Below, one piece after another: positions 9,922 to 23,233 of a DNA stretch of 64,000 nucleotides; the first letter of the stretch is position 1, and each line of letters opens with the position of its first letter. The stretch is from Nannocystis bainbridge (GTDB lineage Bacteria > Myxococcota_A > Polyangia > Nannocystales > Nannocystaceae): assembly GCF_028368995.1 (NCBI RefSeq), contig NZ_JAQNDL010000004.1, positions 672,001 to 736,000 on the forward strand. The letters run 5' to 3'. A program made the position numbers and the translations under genes. The notes below the pieces were generated by a model that saw only the letters and a list, made by a program, of their open reading frames with translations, ran no database searches and was not told where the DNA came from.

Positions 9922-10818
9922 ACGGACGGGCCCAACAACGCCAACACCAACGCGTGCAAGGCCGACTGCAGCAAGCAGGCGTGCGGCGATGGCTTCGTCG
10001 GCCCCGGTGAAGGCTGCGACGACGGCAACCAGAGCAACGCGGACGCGTGCACCAACGTCTGCAAGCCGGCCACCTGCGGCGACGGGTTCGTGCAGGCCGG
10101 CGAGCAGTGCGACCTCGGGCTGCTCAACAGCAACAGCGGGCTGTGCACGCTCGCCTGCAAGAACGCGGTGTGCGGCGACGGCTTCACCCAGCCGGGCGAG
10201 CAGTGCGACGACGCCAACATGAACAACAACGACGCCTGCACCAACACGTGCAAGAACGCGGCGTGCGGCGACGGGTTCGTCCAGCCGGGTGAGCAGTGCG
10301 ACGACGGCAACGCGAGCAACACCGACGGCTGCACCAACGCGTGCAAGCCGGCCACGTGCGGCGACGGGTTCGTCCAGCCCGGCATCGGCGAGACCTGCGA
10401 CGACGCCAACAACATCCCCAACGACGGCTGCAACCCCGGCTGCGGCACGTCCTGCAAGGCCGTCAACGGGCTCAACTGGTGCTACAACCCGACCGCCTGC
10501 GGGCAGCCGTGCGATGCCGTGTGCGCGCACTTCGGGCTCACGCCGCTGGCCGACAAGAACGCGTGGTTCCTGGCCCAGGACACCGAGCCCGAGTGCTAGG
10601 CGCTGGCGAGCGCGTTCGGGCTGAACGGCGTCGCGGTGAACGGCTGGACCTACGCGTGCCTCGAGGACACGTCCGGCGATCACACCAACATGCCGCTGAT
10701 CGGGCCGCTGTACTGCTCGACCTACGCCGGGTGCCCGAACGAGCACCTCATCAACATGGACCAGATCGGGAACGCCTGTAACAACAACGGCCGGCGCTCG
10801 ATCTGCCCGTGCCAGTGA
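9922..10818 (+). pseudogene. DUF4215 (myxococcal Cys-rich repeat) protein, 5'-truncated, with in-frame TAG
   Basis: CGDGFV..GEQCDDGN repeats; no signal peptide or start; TAG at 10597-10599 with the same frame continuing to SICPCQ. Confidence 0.8.
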
Positions 10819-10977
10819 GCGCGCTCGCCGGATGGCTCTCGGGACAGGTAGACCGAGAGCCGTCCGGTGCCTGGACCGCGTGACGCGCGGCCTGCTCGCG
10901 GCTCAGCCGGAGGTCCCATGGGTGCCTCCGGCTGAGCCGTCGACACGCATCATCCGTGGAGCCGCGCGGGCTCGGCG

Positions 10978-12582
10978 TCAGCGCGGGGCCGCGGTGTTCT
11001 GCAGCACGACCACGTGGCTGGCCTGCGGCGCGACGTCGGCGGCCGTGAAGGCGGTGAGCAGCTCGGCGCGCAGCAGCTCGCAGGTGGCGTCGTCGCGGCC
11101 GGGCTTGACGCGGGCGACGCAGCGGACGAGCACGCCGGTGTCTTGCAGGTCCTGGACCACGAATTCGGGGTCGTCGAGGAGGTCGGGGCAGCGCGGGCGG
11201 AGCTCGGCCAGGTGGGCCTTGAAGAGCGCGAGGACGCGGGTGAGGTCGGCGGCGTAGGGCAGGCGGAAGTCGACGATCGCGTTGACGTAGACGCGCGCGT
11301 GGTTGGCGATGCTGCGGACCTCGCCGTTGGGGATGCAGTGGAGCACGCCGGCCTCGTCGCGGAGCTTGAGCACGCGGACCCCGATCTCCTCGACGTTGCC
11401 GACCACGTCGCCGACGCGCACGCGGTCGCCGACGAGGAACAGGCCCTCGAACAGGATGAAGAAGCCGGACACGACGTCGCCGACGAACGCCTGCGCGCCG
11501 AGGCCGACGGCCAGCCCGAGCAGGCCGGCGCCGGCGAGGATCGGCGAGGTGTCGAGGCCGAGCTCCTGCAGCGCCATCACCGTCATGCAGAAGTAGATGG
11601 CGTAGCGGAGGATGCTGCTGGCGACCGGGACGAGGGTGAGGCGCTGCTGGTTCTCGGCCTCGCTGCGCTTGTCCGGATCGGCCAGCAGCAGCTCGCGCAC
11701 CAGCAGCTCGAACACCTCGATCAGCACCCGGCCGGCGTACACGAGGGCGATGATGCGGATGCCGACGAGGCCGAACTCCGACAGCCGGCCGCCGGGGTTG
11801 ATCTGATCGAAGATCCAGGTGGCGGCGCCGACGAAGAAGAAGTAGTCGAGCGTGCGCTTGGTGATGCCCGCGAGGTGCTCGAGCCGACCGACGTAGCGCA
11901 GGGTGCGGTGGCCCTCGCGGCCGCGCGCGAACTGAAACACGACGTCGACCGCCAGGTGGGCGATGACGATCATCGTCCGCGCGATCAGCACGCCGAGCGC
12001 GACCACCGTGACGACGTGCAGCGCTCGCACGATCAGCTCCGGCGGAGGTGCGAGCGCGACGCACAGGCCCGCGGCCGCCAGCGCGATGCCCCAGCGCAGG
12101 GCGATCAGCAGGCGCTCGAGCAGGACGGCGAGCTGGGCGTCGTGCTGCGCGAACGCGGGGTTGCGGCGCAGGCCGGCGATCAAGTAGTGGGCGACGACCT
12201 TGAAGAATCGATAGACGAGGTAGGCGGCGAGCGCGACGCCGACGACGCTCAGGGCCCGCTGCAGCGCCGCCATCGGATCGCGGAGGAGCGCGACCTGGGC
12301 CCACGCCCACAGCCGCGGCGCGCAGTCGATGTCGTACATCGTCAGCGCGACGCCCCCCACGATCAGCGCGATGGCGACCACGGTGGCGACGACGACGATC
12401 GCCCGCGACACGCGGCTCGCCAGCGAGGCGGCCAGGGTGTCGTGATTGGGAGCGCGGACCAGCCGCAGCGCGACCCGCAGCAGGCGACCGGACTGGCGCG
12501 ACACGATCAGGGCCGCGAGGACCACGAGCAGGAGCGCGGCGCCGAATACGAGCGCGTTATTCAACAGCGTTGCAGCGTCCAT
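10978..12582 (-). CDS. MscS-family mechanosensitive channel
   Basis: Multiple TM helices; ILAGAGLLGLAVGLGAQAFVGDVVSGFFILFE..VGDRV..IPNG. Confidence 0.9.
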   Translation of the reverse strand: MDAATLLNNALVFGAALLLVVLAALIVSRQSGRLLRVALRLVRAPNHDTLAASLASRVSRAIVVVATVVAIALIVGGVALTMYDIDCAPRLWAWAQVALLRDPMAALQRALSVVGVALAAYLVYRFFKVVAHYLIAGLRRNPAFAQHDAQLAVLLERLLIALRWGIALAAAGLCVALAPPPELIVRALHVVTVVALGVLIARTMIVIAHLAVDVVFQFARGREGHRTLRYVGRLEHLAGITKRTLDYFFFVGAATWIFDQINPGGRLSEFGLVGIRIIALVYAGRVLIEVFELLVRELLLADPDKRSEAENQQRLTLVPVASSILRYAIYFCMTVMALQELGLDTSPILAGAGLLGLAVGLGAQAFVGDVVSGFFILFEGLFLVGDRVRVGDVVGNVEEIGVRVLKLRDEAGVLHCIPNGEVRSIANHARVYVNAIVDFRLPYAADLTRVLALFKAHLAELRPRCPDLLDDPEFVVQDLQDTGVLVRCVARVKPGRDDATCELLRAELLTAFTAADVAPQASHVVVLQNTAAPR

Positions 12583-13037: not shown

Positions 13038-14435
13038 ATGTCGAATGCTCAGAAACCCGGTGATTTTGGCTCGCAGACCAGCCTGGCGACCGCAGCAGCG
13101 CGCAATTTGGCGACGACGACCAAGTCGGAGCCGCAGATGCAAGGCATCAGCTCGCGGTGGCTGCTCAAGCTGCTGCCGTGGGTGCGCGCCGCGGGCGGCG
13201 TCTACCGCGTCAACCGCCGCCTCAGCTACGCGATCGGCGACGGTCGCCTCAGCTTCACCAACGTCGGCGCCAAGGTGTCGGTGGTCCCGCAGGAGCTGAG
13301 CGAGCTGCCGCTGCTGCGCGGCTTCGACGACGTCGAGGTGCTCGCGGCCCTGGCCGGCAAGTTCGTCCAGCGCGAGTACAAGGCCGGCGAGTTGCTGGTC
13401 GAGGCCGGCAAGCCCGCCGACCAAGTGTTCCTGATCGCCCACGGTAAGGTCAACAAGCTCGGCACCGGCAAGTACGGCGACGAGACCGTGCTGGCGGTGC
13501 TGGCCGACGGCGCCCACTTCGGCGACCAGAACCTGGTCGAGGAGAACGACACGTGGGGCTTCACCGTCAAGGCGGTGACCCGCGTCATCGCCCTGACGCT
13601 GCCCGAGAAGGCGCTCGCCGACGCGGTCGAGCAGTCGCCGGCGCTGCGCGCCCAGGTCGAGAAGTTCAAGGCCAACCGCGGCAAGCCGCAGAGCGGCCAG
13701 GGCGAGGCCGAGATCGCGCTGGCCTCCGGCCACCGCGGCGAGGTGGCGCTGCCGGGCACGTTCGTCGACTACGAGCTGTCGCCGCGGGAGTACGAGCTCA
13801 GCGTGGCCCAGACGGTGCTGCAGGTGCACTCCCGCGTCGCCGATCTCTACAACGAGCCGATGAACCAGACGCAGCAGCAGCTGCGCCTGACCATCGAGGC
13901 GCTGCGCGAGCGGCAAGAGCACGAGATGATCAACAGCCCCGAGTTCGGCCTGCTCCACAACGCCGACCTCAAGCAGCGCATCCACACCCGTTCGGGCCCG
14001 CCGACCCCGGACGACCTCGACGAGCTGCTGGCGCTGGTGTGGAAGGAGCCGACGGCGTTCCTGGCCCACCCGCGCACCATCGCGGCGTTCGGCCAGGAGT
14101 GCAGCAAGCGCGGCATCTACCCGCACCCCGTCGAGTTCGCGGGGCATCACATCCCGGCGTGGCGCGGCGTGCCGATCCTGCCGTGCAACAAGATCCCGGT
14201 GACCGACACCCGCACCAGCTCGATCCTGCTGCTGCGCGCCGGCGAGAAGAACCAGGGCGTCATCGGCCTCCACCAGCCGGGCATCCCCGACGAGGTCGAG
14301 CCGAGCCTGTCGGTGCGGTTCATGGGCATCAACGAGAAGGCGATCATCTCGTACCTCGTCAGCGCCTACTACTCGGCCGCCGTGCTGGTGCCCGACGCGC
14401 TGGCGGTGCTCGAGGACGCGGAGATCGGTCGCTGA
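13038..14435 (+). CDS. Family 2B encapsulin shell protein with cNMP-binding insertion (EshA/Cnb-like), copy 1
   Basis: [67 protein letters not shown]. Confidence 0.92.
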
Positions 14436-14471
14436 GGCGGCCGCGGAGCTGAGTCGTAGAGGAGACCGGTC

Positions 14472-15869
14472 ATGTCGGACACGTCGAACCCGAGAGATGA
14501 TGCGCAGACGAGCCTCGCCACGGCGGCGGCTCGCAACCTGGCGACGACCACCAAGTCGGCGCCGCAGATGGCGGGCCAGAGCCCGCGCTGGCTGCTGCGC
14601 CTGCTCCCGTGGGTCGACGTGCCCGGCGGGACCTACCGCGTCAATCGTCGCCTGACCTACGCGGTCGGCGACGGGCGCGTCGGATTTACCAGCGTCGGGC
14701 CGCGCGTGCAGGTCATCCCGCGCGAGCTGACCGAGCTGCCGCTGCTGCGCGGCTTCGAGGACGACGAGGTGCTGTCGGCGCTCGCCGATCGCTTCGTCCA
14801 GCACGAGGTCGCCGCCGGCGAGGTCATCGTCGCCGCCGGCGCGCCCGCCGATCGCGTGGTGCTGCTGGCGCACGGCAAGGCGCGCAAGCTCGGCCCCGGC
14901 AAGTACGACGATTCGCTGGTGCTCGGGCAGCTCGTCGACGGCGATCACTTCGGCGACGAAGGCCTGGTCGCGCGCGGCGACGCGTGGCCGTACACGGTGC
15001 AGGCGGTCACGCGCTGCGTGGTCCTGACGCTGTCGGAGCAGGTGCTGACGCGGGCGATCGCCGACTCCCCGGCGCTCGCCGCACACGTCGAGGCCTACGC
15101 GCGCCGACGCGCGCAGCCGCAGGACAAGAGCGGGCAGCAGGCGATAGCGATGTCCGCCGGGCACAGCGGTGAAGCGACGCTGCCGATCAGCTACGTCGAT
15201 TACGAGCTGCGCCCGCGCGAGTACGAGCTCTCGCTCGTGCAGACGATCTTGCGCGTACACACCCGCGTGGCTGACCTCTATAGTGAGCCGATGGATCAGA
15301 CGCAGGAGCAGCTGCGCCTCACGATCGCGGCGGTGCGCGAGCAGCAGGAGCACGAGCTGCTGAACCACCGCGAGTTCGGGCTGCTGCACAACGTCGACCT
15401 CAAGCAGCGGATCCCGACCCGCAGCGGGCCGCCGACGCCCGAGGACCTCGACGAGCTGCTGTGCCGTCGGCGCTCGACCCGGTTCTTCCTGGCCCACCCG
15501 CGCACGATCGCCGCGTTCGCCCGCGAGTGCACGCGCCGCGGGATCTACCCGCAGACGCTGGCGCTCGAGGGCAGCGCGATGCTCGGCTGGCGCGGGGTCC
15601 CGATCGTGCCGAGCGACAAGATGCCGATCTCCCGCGAGGGCACCAGCGCGATCCTGGCGATGCGCGTCGGCGCCGAGTCGCAGGGCGTGATCGGGCTGCA
15701 CCAGACCGGCATCCCCGACGAGGTCGAGCCGAGCCTTTCGGTGCGCTCGATCGGGGTCGACGACCGCGCGGTCCACGAATACCTGATCACTGCGTACTTC
15801 TCGGCGGCGGTGCTGGTGCCCGACGCGCTGGGGATGCTCGAAGACGTGGCGATCGGTCGCCAGGAGTAG
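14472..15869 (+). CDS. Family 2B encapsulin shell protein, copy 2
   Basis: Same motifs and length (465 aa) as the upstream paralog. Confidence 0.92.
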
Positions 15870-18224
<2,355 letters not shown>

Positions 18225-18297: not shown

Positions 18298-19392
18298 TCA
18301 GCGCGGCGCGGTGGCCTGCGCGGCCTCGATCTCGGCGTGGATCGCGGGCGCGTGGAGCCGGGTCCACTCGAGCACGGCGCGCAGCTGGACGCCGTAGTTC
18401 TCGGTGCGCACCGCGACGCCGTCGAGCTTGATCGTCGCGCCGGGGAGCTCGCGGTGGCCGCGGTGCAAGGCGACGACGCCCCACTCGTCGTCGCACACCG
18501 GCGAGCCGGAGGCGCCGCTGCGGGTGTCGGTGAGATAGCTGAGCCAGTGGCTGTCGCCGTGCACGACGAAGTTGTTGCGCAGGCCGATCCGCATCGGCTC
18601 GCCGTCGGGGTGCTGCAGGACGTTGACGCACTCCGCCAGCGGGGTGTCGCGGGTGCGCTCGAGCGGGCGCACTCGCAGGCGCAGCGGCGGACGGTCGACG
18701 GGCCCCAGCCGCAGCAGCGCGAAGTCGAGTTCGGCGTCGGCGGCGACGACCTCGAGCACACCGACCGATTCGAAGGGAGCGTCGGGGGCGAGGTAGTCGA
18801 ATTGCAGGACGGTCCCGCGGGCCTGCAGCGCGAAGTCAGTGGCGGTGATCGTCTCGCCGTCCTGGCGCGCGGCGATGACGTGATGGTTGGTGATGCCGAG
18901 GTTGGGCGCGATCAGCCAGCCGGTGCCGGTCGAAACCTCGGGGCTCTCGTCGGCCTGGTAGCGCGGCTTGTCGCCGAAGTGACGGTGGACCAAAACCTTG
19001 GCCACCGACTTGGCCGCCTCGGCGCCGCGGACGAGGAAGCGGGCGGAGATGGTGTGATCGCGCCGGGTCGACAGGGCCTCGAGGTGGAGGCGCGAGAGCT
19101 GCTCGGGCGAGGTCCAGGCGTAGGGCTTGGGCTGGGACCACTCGGCCGCGACGGCCTGGATCTCGGCGCTGCGGCGCGGTCGCTCGGCGCACAGAGCGGC
19201 GAAGAAGCGGGCGTCGACGAGCTGACGGCGCTCGAGCAGTTCGCACGCGGCCTCGACGAGCTGCACGGGCGGAACGTTGGCGCCGGGCAGGGCGAGGATC
19301 ACCTCGTCGCCGAAGCCGTAGCGCAGGAATCGCCGCAGCTCGTCGGCGCTGAACATGCTGAGCAAGAGGCGCTCCAACCGTTGTGTTCGCAT
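18298..19392 (-). CDS. Effector-associated-domain (EAD-like) protein fused to a trypsin-like serine protease
   Basis: N-terminal helical ~85 aa (LLLSMFSADELRRFL..FFAALCAERPRRSAEI); triad TNHHV / DFALL / GASGSP. Confidence 0.8.
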   Translation of the reverse strand: MRTQRLERLLLSMFSADELRRFLRYGFGDEVILALPGANVPPVQLVEAACELLERRQLVDARFFAALCAERPRRSAEIQAVAAEWSQPKPYAWTSPEQLSRLHLEALSTRRDHTISARFLVRGAEAAKSVAKVLVHRHFGDKPRYQADESPEVSTGTGWLIAPNLGITNHHVIAARQDGETITATDFALQARGTVLQFDYLAPDAPFESVGVLEVVAADAELDFALLRLGPVDRPPLRLRVRPLERTRDTPLAECVNVLQHPDGEPMRIGLRNNFVVHGDSHWLSYLTDTRSGASGSPVCDDEWGVVALHRGHRELPGATIKLDGVAVRTENYGVQLRAVLEWTRLHAPAIHAEIEAAQATAPR

Positions 19393-19445: not shown

Positions 19446-21200
19446 TCACTCGGGTTCGGGCGCGCCGAGGCGGACCTCGAGGGTGATCGGGACGACGATG
19501 CGCAGGCTGTCGGTGGTGGTCGTTGCGGTGGTGGGGGCGAGCTGCACGCGACGTCGCGGTCGCGCGGGGGCGGCGGTCGTGTCGGCGATCCGCCGGCGCA
19601 GGGCCATGGAGGCGTGGCGCGGGACGGCCGGCAGCGGTGATTCGCCGAGGACCGCGTCGACCAAAGCGCGACGATAAACAGGGTCGACGACGAGCTGCTG
19701 CAAGACCTCGACGCCGAGGCCCGGGGCGGCGGTCGTGAGGTCCTCGCGGGCGCCGGCGCCGAGCAGGTGGGCGACGCCGAGGCGGACGCGCTGCTCGACG
19801 CTGCGGGTCTGCGCGTGCGCCGAGACGATGGCCTCGTGCGGGCCCGTGCGACCGCGTGCGCGCTCCAGGGCGAGGGGCAACAAGGCGTCGACGAGCATCG
19901 CTTCGGGGGCGGCCGGCGGCGTGGCGCCTGGGGCCTCCTCGCCGAGCGGCAGCGGGGCCTGCAGCAGGGCCGCGCAGTCGAGCAGGCCGGCGCCGAACCA
20001 CGCCCGCGGGAACGGGCCGGGATCGAGGGCGTCGCGGGTCGAGCCGGCGAGCGCGCGGCGAAACGCCTGCGGCAGCGCGGCGCCGGGGTAGCGCTGGCGC
20101 AGCGCGACGGGGTCGTGCCGGGCCAGCCACAGCGCGGCGGCCGAGGCGACCAGGGCGGTCGCGTAGGAGGTGCCGCTGCTGATCCGCGTCACGGCGTCGC
20201 CGTCGCGCCAGTCGGCGACGAGCATGCGGTGGCCAGGGGCCGTCAGGGCGACGCTCGGGCCCTTCGACGAGTCACTCCATACCTGTCCTTTAGGACCGGT
20301 GGCCGCGACGGCGAGCACCTCGGGATAGGCGGCCGGCCAGACCACGAACTGCACGTGGTTGCCGGCGGCGGCGACGACGATGACGCCGCGCGCGTGGGCC
20401 CGCTCGACCGCGCGGCGCAGGCGAGCGCCAGGCAGGCCGCCGAGGCTGAGCGAGACGACGTGACAGCCGCGCGCGACCGCGTGGTCGATGGCCTGGGCCA
20501 GGCGCGCGTGCCAGGTGAGGATGACGACCGAGTCGGTGACGCGGATCGGCACGAGCTCGGCGGCGGGCGCGAGGCCGACGACGCGGTGCGGCAGCCGTTC
20601 GCGGCCGACCATGAGGCTGCTGGTCGCGGTGCCGTGGCCGGGTTGGCCCACTGGCGCGAGCGGATCGATCGGCGGGCTGCCGGGCTCCATCAGGTTCAGG
20701 CCCTGGTCGTGCAAGACGGCCGCGCCGGCGAGGCTGGGGTGCTCGGTGGTGCCGCTGTCGGGGTGACCGATCCGCACACCGTGGCCGTGGCCGTGCTGCC
20801 AGGCGCGCTCGGCCCCGATCTCGGCCAGATGCCAGCGCGGCGGGGGGTTGATGGAGAGCTCGGTGCCGGGGGCCTCGCGCACTTCGGCGGCGATCCGGGC
20901 GTCGATCTCGGTCAACGCGTGATCGAGCTCGGCCTCGGCGATAGCGGCGAGCTCGGGGCGAGCGGCCAGCGCTTCGGTCAGCGCGTGGGCGGCGTTCCAG
21001 CCGCGGCGCAGGTCGGTGCCGGCGGGCGCGAGCACCTCGATCAGCCGCCGCGGCTCGCCGGGGTCGGCGGGGCCGCGGACGCGCCAGCCGCGAGCGGCGA
21101 GGCCCGCGGTCTGCACGGCGTGCTCGACGGCGGCGGCGGCGTGGGCGGCGGTGTCGGCGGTGAGCTCGACGACGACGCTGCGGGTGTTCGGCGGGTTCAT
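19446..21200 (-). CDS. S8 subtilase-family peptidase, no signal peptide
   Basis: GHPDSG (D), GHGTAT (H), AAAGN, SGTSYAT (S); ATG overlaps the upstream stop (ATGA). Confidence 0.9.
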   Translation of the reverse strand: MNPPNTRSVVVELTADTAAHAAAAVEHAVQTAGLAARGWRVRGPADPGEPRRLIEVLAPAGTDLRRGWNAAHALTEALAARPELAAIAEAELDHALTEIDARIAAEVREAPGTELSINPPPRWHLAEIGAERAWQHGHGHGVRIGHPDSGTTEHPSLAGAAVLHDQGLNLMEPGSPPIDPLAPVGQPGHGTATSSLMVGRERLPHRVVGLAPAAELVPIRVTDSVVILTWHARLAQAIDHAVARGCHVVSLSLGGLPGARLRRAVERAHARGVIVVAAAGNHVQFVVWPAAYPEVLAVAATGPKGQVWSDSSKGPSVALTAPGHRMLVADWRDGDAVTRISSGTSYATALVASAAALWLARHDPVALRQRYPGAALPQAFRRALAGSTRDALDPGPFPRAWFGAGLLDCAALLQAPLPLGEEAPGATPPAAPEAMLVDALLPLALERARGRTGPHEAIVSAHAQTRSVEQRVRLGVAHLLGAGAREDLTTAAPGLGVEVLQQLVVDPVYRRALVDAVLGESPLPAVPRHASMALRRRIADTTAAPARPRRRVQLAPTTATTTTDSLRIVVPITLEVRLGAPEPE

Positions 21201-23233
21201 GCGTCCTCCGGCGCGGGCGTGAACTCGACGAGGTCGACCCATTGTGGGTGATCGATGAACGGGTTGCGGTTGCCCTGCACGGCGAAGATGGCCTGATTGC
21301 GGTGACGCTCGTGGAGGCCGGGCGGATCGTCCGTGGACCAGCGCTTCAGCAGCTCGATCTGGGCCGGCGTGGGCGTGCGGGAGGGGTCGAGCTCGCTGGC
21401 GTAGCGGACCAGGAAATAGAGGGTCGCGCGGGCGACCGGGCCGTGGCCGTCGCCAGGCTCGAAGTACGGGCCCTCGCCCTCGCCGCAGGGCGGCATCGGG
21501 GTGTCGCGGTCGAACTCGTGGTAGGCGCGGTCGGCCCGCAGGGTGTTGCAGGGCGGGTCGCAGGCGAAAAGATGGTGGAGGTCGCCGCGCATCGGCTCGC
21601 GCTTGCCGAACCAGCTCTGCGGGACCACGTGCTCGCAGTTGTAGGGCAGCTCGGCCTCGACGGCGGCGTCGATGTCGGCGAGCGAGAGGGAGGTGCGGCG
21701 CGCCCGCAACTCCGATCGGCGGGCCCGGCGGGCGGCGTCGATGCGGGCGTCGTCGGCGATCAGGGCCTCGGGCGAGAAGGTCGCGCCGGAGTAGATCGAG
21801 GCCAGGCGGAGGTCGGGGCGGAGGTCGACCCAGGGGTAGAGCTGGTGGCTCGGATTGTATTTCGGCGCCTCGGCGTGGGTGGTCGTGAGCAGGGCCGAGA
21901 GCGATTCGTGGCAGATGTCGTGGAGGATGTCGGCGTAATAGCTCGCGCGATCGCTGGCGTCCTGGGCGGCGTCGTAATACGGGCGAGCGCGGGCGGCGGC
22001 GACGAGGCGGTGCAGGTCGGCGGCAATGGGGGCAGGCTGCTCGACCGCAGCAATGGTGGCACCCGCCGCGGTGCCGAGCCGCACGGTGATCTCGATCGGC
22101 ACGGTGATGCGCAGGGTCTGGCCCGGAACGGCGACTGTGGTGATTGACGGCGCCGGGGCGATCGGCGGCGCCTGCTCGAGGTCGTTCCAGGCGGCGCTCC
22201 ATTCGCCCGGCAATTCGCGGGGCGCGGCGGCGCCGGCGAACCGGACCCCGGCGTCGACGATCCGCGGATCCCAGGCGAGCTCGGCGGCGGGGACGGCGAA
22301 GTTGCGGTCGAGGTAGACGCCGCCGAAATGCAGCCCGAGCACGCGGCCGGTGGCGACGTCGAGGATCGCGGCGCCGGAGCAGCCGCCGAGGGTCGAGGAG
22401 TCGTGCAGCGCGGCCGAGACGGTGCGGCCGAAGCTGGCGACGCGGCGGCGGCCGCCGAAGTAACCGGGGGCGAGGCGTTTGAGGTTGTAGCGGCCGCGGA
22501 ACACGCGTTGCTGGATCGTCAGGTCGTTGCGCAGATCGAGGCCGGGATAACCGATCACTGCGACGCGCCGACGGGCGGCAGGATCGTCGACGGCGAGCGC
22601 GAGCGGGGTGACCTGCAGGCCGTCGACGCGCAGCAAGGCCAGGTCCCAGTAGGGGTGGATCAGGACGACCTCGGACACTGCGTAGGTGGGGCCGTCGGGC
22701 TCGTCCTGCTGCTCGCGGCGCGGATCGAAGCCGGCGGTCTGGCCGGGGAGGAAGCGCAGGTGGGTGCGCCCGAGGCCGCCGGCGAACAGCTGGGCGACGT
22801 GGCGATTGGTCATGATGAGGCCGTCGCCGACGACGAAGCCGGTGCCGCCGTAGGGCAGCGAGAGGTTGTCCGGCAGCTCGATGCGGCCGATCGCCGGCAG
22901 GCAGGCTTCGATGCGCGCGCGGAGGTCGGCGTCGGCGTGGAGGTCGAAGAACTCGCCGGGCGGCAGACCGAGCAGCTTGCCGTCAGCGATGTCGGCGACG
23001 GGCCGCTCCCTGGGCAGGATGATCGCCTCGAGGCACTCGAGGTCGCCCGGCGCGAGCGGGGCGCGATCGATCCACTTGCGGGCGGTGCTGCGGACCTGAT
23101 CGGTCTGGCGCGCGTCGAGGCCGAACCACTGGGCGGCGCCGGCGACGATGGGCTCGACGGAGGCGCTGGATTCGAGGTGGGACGGTGGCAGGATGGAGTC
23201 CGCGTAGGCGCGGACGCGGGCGGGCGAGGCCAT
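21197..23233 (-). CDS. Trypsin/V8-like protease fused to an endonuclease I (EndA-type beta-beta-alpha-Me) nuclease
   Basis: GTGFVV..TNRHVA, DLALL, HDSSTLGGCSGA; C-terminal NCEHVVPQSW..GDLHHLF..CN..R, ARATLYFLVRY, QGNRNPFIDHP. Confidence 0.9.
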   Translation of the reverse strand: MASPARVRAYADSILPPSHLESSASVEPIVAGAAQWFGLDARQTDQVRSTARKWIDRAPLAPGDLECLEAIILPRERPVADIADGKLLGLPPGEFFDLHADADLRARIEACLPAIGRIELPDNLSLPYGGTGFVVGDGLIMTNRHVAQLFAGGLGRTHLRFLPGQTAGFDPRREQQDEPDGPTYAVSEVVLIHPYWDLALLRVDGLQVTPLALAVDDPAARRRVAVIGYPGLDLRNDLTIQQRVFRGRYNLKRLAPGYFGGRRRVASFGRTVSAALHDSSTLGGCSGAAILDVATGRVLGLHFGGVYLDRNFAVPAAELAWDPRIVDAGVRFAGAAAPRELPGEWSAAWNDLEQAPPIAPAPSITTVAVPGQTLRITVPIEITVRLGTAAGATIAAVEQPAPIAADLHRLVAAARARPYYDAAQDASDRASYYADILHDICHESLSALLTTTHAEAPKYNPSHQLYPWVDLRPDLRLASIYSGATFSPEALIADDARIDAARRARRSELRARRTSLSLADIDAAVEAELPYNCEHVVPQSWFGKREPMRGDLHHLFACDPPCNTLRADRAYHEFDRDTPMPPCGEGEGPYFEPGDGHGPVARATLYFLVRYASELDPSRTPTPAQIELLKRWSTDDPPGLHERHRNQAIFAVQGNRNPFIDHPQWVDLVEFTPAPEDA

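Follow-up and report, generated by a model that had tools for sequence, protein, structure and literature searches.

A linker-embedded strand motif shared by a trypsin–nuclease protein and an S8 peptidase in a Nannocystis bainbridge protease operon, and its possible role as a docking tag

The window analysed here, a 64,000-nucleotide stretch of the Nannocystis bainbridge genome (contig NZ_JAQNDL010000004.1, positions 672,001 to 736,000; genome about 11 Mb, window G+C 70%), contains an operon encoding two trypsin-like proteases, a nuclease and an S8 peptidase, and the subject of this report is a short amphipathic motif that occurs in two of its products. Three co-directional genes on the minus strand were defined with a GC3 frame plot (G+C by codon position) together with inspection of start sites. 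Gene 1 (tryp1; 21197..23233) encodes a protein of 678 amino acids (aa) in which an N-terminal regulatory region is followed by a Trypsin_2 domain (PF13365, aa 130-301, 22331..22846; Pfam, 4.6e-18), a linker, the motif, a second linker and an Endonuclease I domain (PF04231, aa 528-663, 21245..21652; Pfam, 6.7e-29) that is the likely toxic effector. A search of PDB sequences with the gene 1 product matched Endonuclease I/Vvn-type nucleases and V8/Spl proteases, and the catalytic triad of its protease (H145, D197, S286) is invariant in an alignment of 53 relatives. Gene 2 (19446..21200), whose ATG overlaps the gene 1 stop codon (ATGA, read from the sequence), encodes a 584-aa S8 (subtilisin-like) peptidase composed of an N-terminal beta-alpha prodomain-like unit, a catalytic domain (PF00082, aa 139-363, 6e-30), a helical C-terminal domain and a tail. 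The Asp-His-Ser triad that defines Peptidase S8 (subtilase) is present within PF00082 (D148, H189, S345) and, like N281, is invariant among 37 aligned relatives. Gene 3 (tryp2; 18298..19392) encodes a 364-aa protein with a helical N-terminal domain of ~130 aa ahead of PF13365 (aa 156-309, 3.2e-17). This Trypsin_2 domain differs from that of gene 1, since a hidden Markov model (HMM) of tryp1 gives no match to gene 3, and gene 3 contains no copy of the motif.

One copy of the motif, LRITVPIEITVRLG (22073..22114, minus strand; tryp1 aa 374-387), lies between the trypsin and Endonuclease I domains in a Pro/Ala/Thr-rich linker. The other, LRIVVPITLEVRLG (19464..19505, minus strand; S8 aa 566-579), ends five residues before the C-terminus of the S8 peptidase and is followed only by APEPE and the stop codon. 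Both peptides had been reported by a first-pass annotation of this DNA, and both are encoded in frame, on the minus strand, with the Pro/Ala/Thr-rich flanks that it described evident around each copy; its start positions (19464 and 22073) are correct, while its end positions each run one base too far. The plus strand at both coordinates encodes unrelated peptides. The two copies are identical at 10 of 14 residues and at 30 of 42 bases, and they follow the pattern h-x-h-x-h-P-h-x-h-T/S-h-x-h-G(-x-P), which describes an amphipathic strand of about 13-16 residues with one fully hydrophobic face.

If the pairwise match stood alone, the resemblance would be weak. BLASTP of tryp1 against the S8 peptidase returned a 22-residue match of marginal significance (E = 0.026) and no other; the two proteins had been called otherwise unrelated, which agrees with the lack of further significant similarity by BLASTP but needs the qualification that trypsin, nuclease and S8 form one polypeptide in other genomes. 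Generic alternating strands with at least seven hydrophobic positions are also not very rare, numbering 56 in the ~8,400 candidate open reading frames (ORFs) of the genome. Both the marginal E value and this frequency speak for a chance likeness of two hydrophobic linker segments. A strict regular expression, composed after both peptides had been seen, found the two copies and one other match in the six frames of the 11-Mb genome. An HMM of the motif built from the trypsin family, a check that the first-pass annotation had proposed, singled out the tryp1 copy from the whole genome (24.5 bits, the next match scoring 10 bits) but was too weak to furnish a genome-wide list of carriers, the other matches (at most 10 bits) being noise. 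What argues against chance is that the motif is conserved at the same positions in the orthologues of both proteins, the conservation on which the earlier proposal depended, and that the strict alternating pattern, when sought in a diverse set of 150 S8 representatives, occurred 16 times, each time in a terminal tail and nowhere else in 100,133 residues. Judged on these sequence comparisons, conservation and position make the resemblance non-random, and a coincidental likeness is extremely improbable.

Gene 1 belongs to a large family, 1,017 of 8,000 scored candidates being accepted as relatives at E ≤ 0.001; in a species genome collection (~185,000 genomes), 325 tryp1 relatives were found among 355 matched stretches. 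The relatives share the N-terminal region and the trypsin domain, and differ in what follows: Endonuclease I, Endonuclease NS, a lipase-type domain or nothing. In most of them the same trypsin module is fused to PF01223 (Endonuclease NS), and the module of the window is 41-53% identical to the PF13365+PF01223 proteins listed among the matches. The motif block follows the trypsin domain in 51 of the 53 aligned relatives and is absent from two. A Pro/Ala-rich linker of variable length, 15-48 aa with a median of 33, separates the domain from the motif. The trypsin copies keep Pro379 in at least 90% of cases, and the flanks vary in length and sequence. Across a set of 81 loci (80 genomes plus the window) with 83 tryp1-type ORFs, the motif scored at least 9 bits in 73 ORFs and more weakly in 2; it was recognised by eye in divergent form in 4, was split by a frameshift in 1 and was absent from 3. 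Trypsin-only proteins carry it at the C-terminus (e.g. P0224, P0159, P0241).

The first-pass annotation had seen in the motif a link that brings the S8 peptidase to the nuclease. As a link specific to that pair, it does not survive the comparison of loci, in which the motif is found in those 73 of 83 trypsin ORFs irrespective of the domain that follows. An S8 gene lies within 8 kb of tryp1 at just 11 of the 81 loci, and just 7 of those S8 proteins fall in the clade of gene 2, yet most of the 70 loci without an S8 also have the motif; in N. punicea and N. exedens (L001, L002), for example, a trypsin–motif–nuclease gene stands without an S8 gene within 8 kb. In most systems the strand would therefore act without S8. 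On the evidence of these alignments the motif belongs to the trypsin module and is not private to the S8–nuclease pair.

AlphaFold2 (AF2) monomer models built with family alignments were confident in the protein cores, with a mean predicted local distance difference test (pLDDT) score of 85 for tryp1 and 88 for S8. The motif segment of tryp1 (aa 362-396) fell below a pLDDT of 50, and the S8 tail (aa 543-584) was modelled as coil with a pLDDT of 52-63. DSSP assignment on the tryp1 model found two complete six-stranded barrels, so the motif strand is not a missing element of the protease core, and the notion that it completes an unfinished barrel was dropped. Motif segments of 51 and 65 aa had no Pfam match at E values up to 5, and in a PDB sequence search no solved structure covered the motif. 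Prediction of a complex between tryp1 aa 1-400 and the S8 tail (aa 520-584) gave a score of 0.02 (mark, 0.32) and counts for neither side.

These models and the locus survey bear on the possibility that the strand acts in cis, folding back on its own protein either to latch the protease cleft or the nuclease in an inhibited state or to aid folding, with the S8 copy an independent or duplicated latch and no contact between the proteins. The presence of the motif in most S8-less loci, which implies a role within tryp1–nuclease proteins alone, and its position at the C-terminus of trypsin-only proteins would both suit such an element. However, AF2 supplied with the family alignment left the motif undocked at very low confidence in both proteins, and retention of the motif whatever domain follows speaks against a latch on the nuclease. 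We regard a cis-acting element as unlikely. A separate feature of the tryp1 model is its N-terminal region (aa 1-115; 22889-23233, minus strand), which is confidently folded, lacks a Pfam match and contains the invariant residues E69, A70, I71, R77 and P78 (…LEAIILPxxRPV…); it could be a pro-region or a pseudosubstrate.

S8 tails were compared in a panel of 150 representatives taken at 50% clustering. Fifteen stand-alone S8 proteins, which form the clade nearest the query, end in an alternating strand of 11-15 residues, and one more has such a strand at its N-terminus. The tails conserve strict hydrophobic/polar alternation and not sequence (e.g. VRIRIDLEICIRV, ITIRIELDIVVRV, VHVRLNVEVEIRI), and many lack proline; among the nearest S8 relatives, tail strands read LRIVVPITIEVRIG, LRIVVPITIEVQIG and LRVTIPITIDIRVG, with proline-less versions including VHVRLNVEVEIRIG and VEIHLTLTVEVRI. 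At all four loci where a separate S8 gene of the gene 2 clade adjoins tryp1 (the window, L003, L005 and L008) the S8 protein has a tail strand, the four representing only two independent lineages. Where S8 is instead fused into the tryp1 polypeptide, a second copy is missing at all three loci (L041, L050, L058). The polypeptides of L041 and L058 unite trypsin, motif, nuclease and S8 around a single motif, and a single motif is likewise found in proteins that unite trypsin, motif and S8 (L050 and P0075/P0109/P0122). The four tryp1–motif–S8 fusion proteins in the panel of 120 S8 relatives also have one copy each. The fused S8 parts end in a conserved helix (…S-x-x-L-R-x-x-L) without a strand. 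Fusions of S8 with tryp2, which make up 18 of 120 and 14 of 150 S8 relatives in two panels, contain no motif. When the window S8 tail was compared with 75 tryp1 motifs, that of its own partner ranked first (10/14 identical), other Nannocystis tryp1 motifs matched at 7-9 of 14 positions and most others at 4-5 of 14; other S8 tails look quite unlike that of the window. The closeness of this tail to its own partner's motif suggests matching between partners.

Wider sampling of the S8 peptidases was made by scans of metagenomes and of phyla, the phylum-wide scans scoring three candidates per genome. A metagenome scan with the tail-bearing S8 clade yielded 80 loci with distant S8 proteins, of which one had a trypsin neighbour and none the motif, so that no further S8/tryp1 pairs were gained. 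Among the candidates scored, the clade turned up in 5 of the 401 genomes from the window's phylum and in 1 of the 401 from the phylum to which G401, the genome of the query, belongs. In the phylum scan, the four S8 loci outside G000 showed no tail strand, and no tryp1 in their short flanks.

Several further features of the S8 relatives were recorded. The helix motif A-S-x-x-L-R-x-x-L, which in the window spans S8 aa 530-540 (~19581-19613, minus strand) and includes the at least 90% conserved S531, is found in nearly all S8 relatives with or without a strand, mostly at the very end of the protein, and could be a second terminal element, of older origin, that serves in docking or regulation. Two S8 proteins, P0006 and P0007 (from a metagenome and a 'Myxococcales bacterium'), begin with ~25 tryp1-like N-terminal residues, a linker and a second copy of the motif, LTLTVPLELSIHVG, all within aa 1-60. 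The P0006 N-terminus resembles the first 30 residues of tryp1, with 10 of 23 identical, a weak match (E = 0.16), and by sequence these proteins look as if a fusion had lost its trypsin and nuclease domains but retained the tag. In L005 (Nannocystis pusilla Na p29, 10413-11815) the S8 gene appears to be split ahead of its tail, with the catalytic domain in one open frame and the tail with its motif in another, reflecting either a frameshift or an assembly error. A distant S8 relative at L162 (G150:C79), encoded by an open frame of 918 aa, has 575 residues ahead of its S8 domain that matched none of the three profiles used, a fusion which suggests further effector–S8 fusions in the phylum; the N-terminal part is phosphoesterase-like by eye only.

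In its arrangement of trypsin, nuclease, S8 and a second trypsin, the operon corresponds to the 'System 3' described by Kaur et al. 2020, with Endonuclease I replacing NucA. As in that system, a trypsin-like peptidase is fused to a nuclease (here PF13365 and PF04231 in one 678-aa protein), the S8 peptidase is, as in some members of that system, in the same polypeptide or operon (here starting on the gene 1 stop codon), and there is a further trypsin paralogue with an N-terminal domain that may be adaptor-like; both are over-represented in multicellular bacteria. They differ in the nuclease, which is Endonuclease I (PF04231) here and which the text of the paper names as NucA-type (PF01223, Endonuclease NS). 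According to that text the trypsin paralogue of System 3 carries EAD1 in a subset of cases. The N-terminal domain of gene 3 (aa 1-130; 19003-19392, minus strand) would by position be its counterpart; it matched none of the Pfam and NCBIfam models searched, and its likeness to an EAD is an impression only. In the section on System 3, Kaur et al. 2020 predict a proteolytic cascade that deploys the nuclease; neither that section nor the passages returned by a term search of the paper mention a conserved strand motif after the trypsin domain, and literature searches did not find the strand motif. PADLOC gave generic protease-domain matches and none at the level of a system, and an NCBIfam search gave sub-threshold matches only.

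The reading that we favour, although we would place it somewhat short of probable, is that the proteins of a proteolytic cascade dock in trans through the motif, which would act as a beta-strand tag. According to this model, the motif is unfolded in the isolated protein and would become one long amphipathic beta-strand only on pairing in trans, either with another copy of the motif or with the sheet edge of a partner domain. It would thereby serve as the assembly tag of the trypsin module in a cascade of trypsin, nuclease, S8 and second trypsin. An S8 peptidase within the same polypeptide would need no tag of its own, whereas a separate S8 would join the assembly of the trypsin–nuclease zymogen through its own C-terminal copy. 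The proteases thus gathered would cut within the flanking linkers and free the Endonuclease I domain.

Several observations are in keeping with such a tag. The motif lies in linkers that the monomer models leave disordered, it is conserved across a large and diverse family, it recurs on S8 where S8 is separate and not where S8 is fused, the window's S8 tail is most like the motif of its own partner, and the system is predicted to be a cascade. The sequences and models thus show the anatomy, the conservation, the single copy per tagged polypeptide and the monomer disorder, from which the binding, the partner and the consequence are inferred. A review reports that patterns in which polar and non-polar residues alternate are under-represented in proteins and favour self-assembly into beta-sheets; as such patterns are avoided, their retention in exposed linkers implies selection. 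The S8 tails keep the pattern and not the sequence, and this accords better with one face lying buried in a sheet than with a sequence-specific cleavage site. In the trypsin copies, the near-invariant proline lies on the polar face and would be expected to block pairing on one edge; a block of this kind fits a finite sheet, or addition at an edge, better than an open-ended fibril.

A number of observations weigh against a docking tag. The third protease of the operon, tryp2, is untagged, and 'one tag per polypeptide' is therefore not a general rule. No receptor site for the motif was found in the tryp1 monomer model (AF2, 53-row alignment); the undocked state in that model is compatible with strand–strand pairing and also with the lack of any defined partner. 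The trypsin-family motif HMM scored the S8 tail at ~8 bits, inside genome noise. Stand-alone S8 relatives mostly have no tail (92 of 120 consist of the S8 domain only, and the figure is 129 of 150 in the second panel). Finally, the argument from matching partners rests on one lineage, and in the L008 pair, the one other pair whose genomic context is available, the strands share ~3 of 14 residues by hand count.

A rival reading is that of processing, the motif being a recognition or cleavage site for tryp1, S8 or tryp2, such that the two proteins would be common substrates of one protease and not a docking pair; the cut would separate the nuclease from tryp1 and trim the S8 tail. Proteases bind substrates as extended strands, the motif sits at domain boundaries where cutting frees the nuclease, and the S8 lineage of P0006 has copies at both ends of the S8 core. 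The proteolytic cascade proposed in the System 3 description (Kaur et al. 2020) also fits, and related defence modules are described, in the sections of PMC12642450 covered, as activated by site-specific cleavage, in one case after a specific Ile in the C-terminal tail. On the other hand, 13 residues of strict alternation exceed the subsites of S1 or S8 proteases, no candidate P1 residue is conserved, the polar face varying between E, Q, R, H and T, and the S8 tails retain only the pattern, often without the proline. A processing site is possible, if doubtful, and could be combined with docking.

The first-pass annotation had drawn an analogy with RHIM-type signalling motifs, and the motif might indeed be a true amyloid or prion-like element whose copies template cross-beta polymers as in Bab/Agp (BASS11), the BASS pairs and RHIM. 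The main accounts of BASS1-10 (Dyrka et al., bioRxiv 2020.01.06.895854), BASS11 of Bab/Agp (bioRxiv 2024.11.07.622273) and RHIM likewise describe a short motif with Pro-rich linkers, common to the products of adjacent cell-death, defence or other conflict-system genes, and the idea that like binds like. In addition, the alternating pattern is reported to be assembly-prone, the partner copies are alike in Nannocystis, and one orthologue (P0005) reads EVQIG. However, the carriers typical of those accounts are an effector C-terminus and the N-terminus of an adjacent NLR/STAND protein, whereas here the copies are C-terminal on S8 and internal, not terminal, in the trypsin–nuclease protein; the neighbours of the operon encode leucine-rich repeat (LRR) and FG-GAP proteins, encapsulins and a terpene synthase, and no NLR/STAND protein was identified among the adjoining genes. 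BASS11 is described as ~25 residues with Gly-separated strands and a rigid core of about that length modelled as four strands, in contrast to the single strand of ~14 residues (13-16 aa) found here, which has charged polar positions and a central proline that is near-invariant in the tryp1 copies, and an engineered N-to-P substitution is reported to abolish BASS11 foci. The motif has one Gly, is not rich in G/N/Q and has no G-h-Q-h-G core of the kind that marks RHIM, PP and BASS3, and its charged polar face would stack like charges in an in-register fibril. The words trypsin, peptidase, subtilase, protease, nuclease and Myxococc… do not occur in the main text of an amyloid-motif detection paper. 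In both sequence and context the motif appears to fall outside the BASS and RHIM families. Three features make a RHIM-like amyloid unlikely: the central proline hardly varies, the motif is short and the G-h-Q-h-G core is missing; the earlier analogy finds no support, and we consider an amyloid or prion-like element of any of these kinds distinctly unlikely.

A docking tag would have counterparts in logic elsewhere. EADs and Death-like adaptors, as presented in the parts of PMC7159879 and PMC8195603 covered, are small modules placed on different effector and sensor proteins with predicted homotypic contact; one adaptor is unified there with the Death-like superfamily, implying folded domains, whereas the present element consists of one unfolded strand, 14-16 residues long. 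In the protease-gated systems of Evans et al. (bioRxiv 2025.11.14.688446, PMC12642450), death effectors stay latent until cleavage at a specific site releases them, and the proteases linked to them are trypsin-like, caspase-like or S8; the sections covered include no trypsin–Endonuclease I fusion and no shared strand motif. A shared adaptor element of a conflict system would thus be known in kind, and its form as a single unfolded strand would differ. More speculatively, and with considerable doubt, the post-trypsin strand might represent an unrecognised class of beta-strand signalling tag, marked by proline and distinct from both amyloid motifs and folded adaptors, that nucleates a finite or polymeric intermolecular sheet of proteases and nuclease zymogen, with partner-specific copies such as that on the Nannocystis S8 setting recruitment. 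Roles as a sorting signal (e.g. MYXO-CTERM), a PDZ ligand, a sliding-clamp-binding motif or a membrane-inserting hairpin were considered and dropped, no supporting feature having been found.

While this type of operon has been described, how its separate proteases and nuclease meet and activate each other has not. A conserved, linker-embedded strand of which each trypsin polypeptide has one, with a further copy on S8 at loci where a neighbouring gene of its own encodes S8, offers a mutable handle on the assembly and activation of a bacterial proteolytic death cascade. If it is a true strand-pairing tag, it would be a third kind of adaptor in prokaryotic conflict systems, beside folded EAD/Death-like domains and amyloid motifs, and its simple sequence signature could be used to search for more clients; if it is a cleavage cassette, it would define the activation site of a widespread nuclease zymogen.

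Upstream of gene 1, after a gap of 377 bp, lie the genes for the unrelated LRR and FG-GAP proteins, and downstream of the operon lies the convergent terpene synthase gene. On the plus strand, window positions 13038-18224 hold two tandem genes for family-2 encapsulin shell proteins, each with an inserted cyclic-nucleotide-binding domain (PF19307 and PF00027), followed directly by the gene for a 782-aa two-domain terpene synthase (PF19086, two stretches). This region looks like an encapsulin–terpene cyclase operon convergent with the protease operon.

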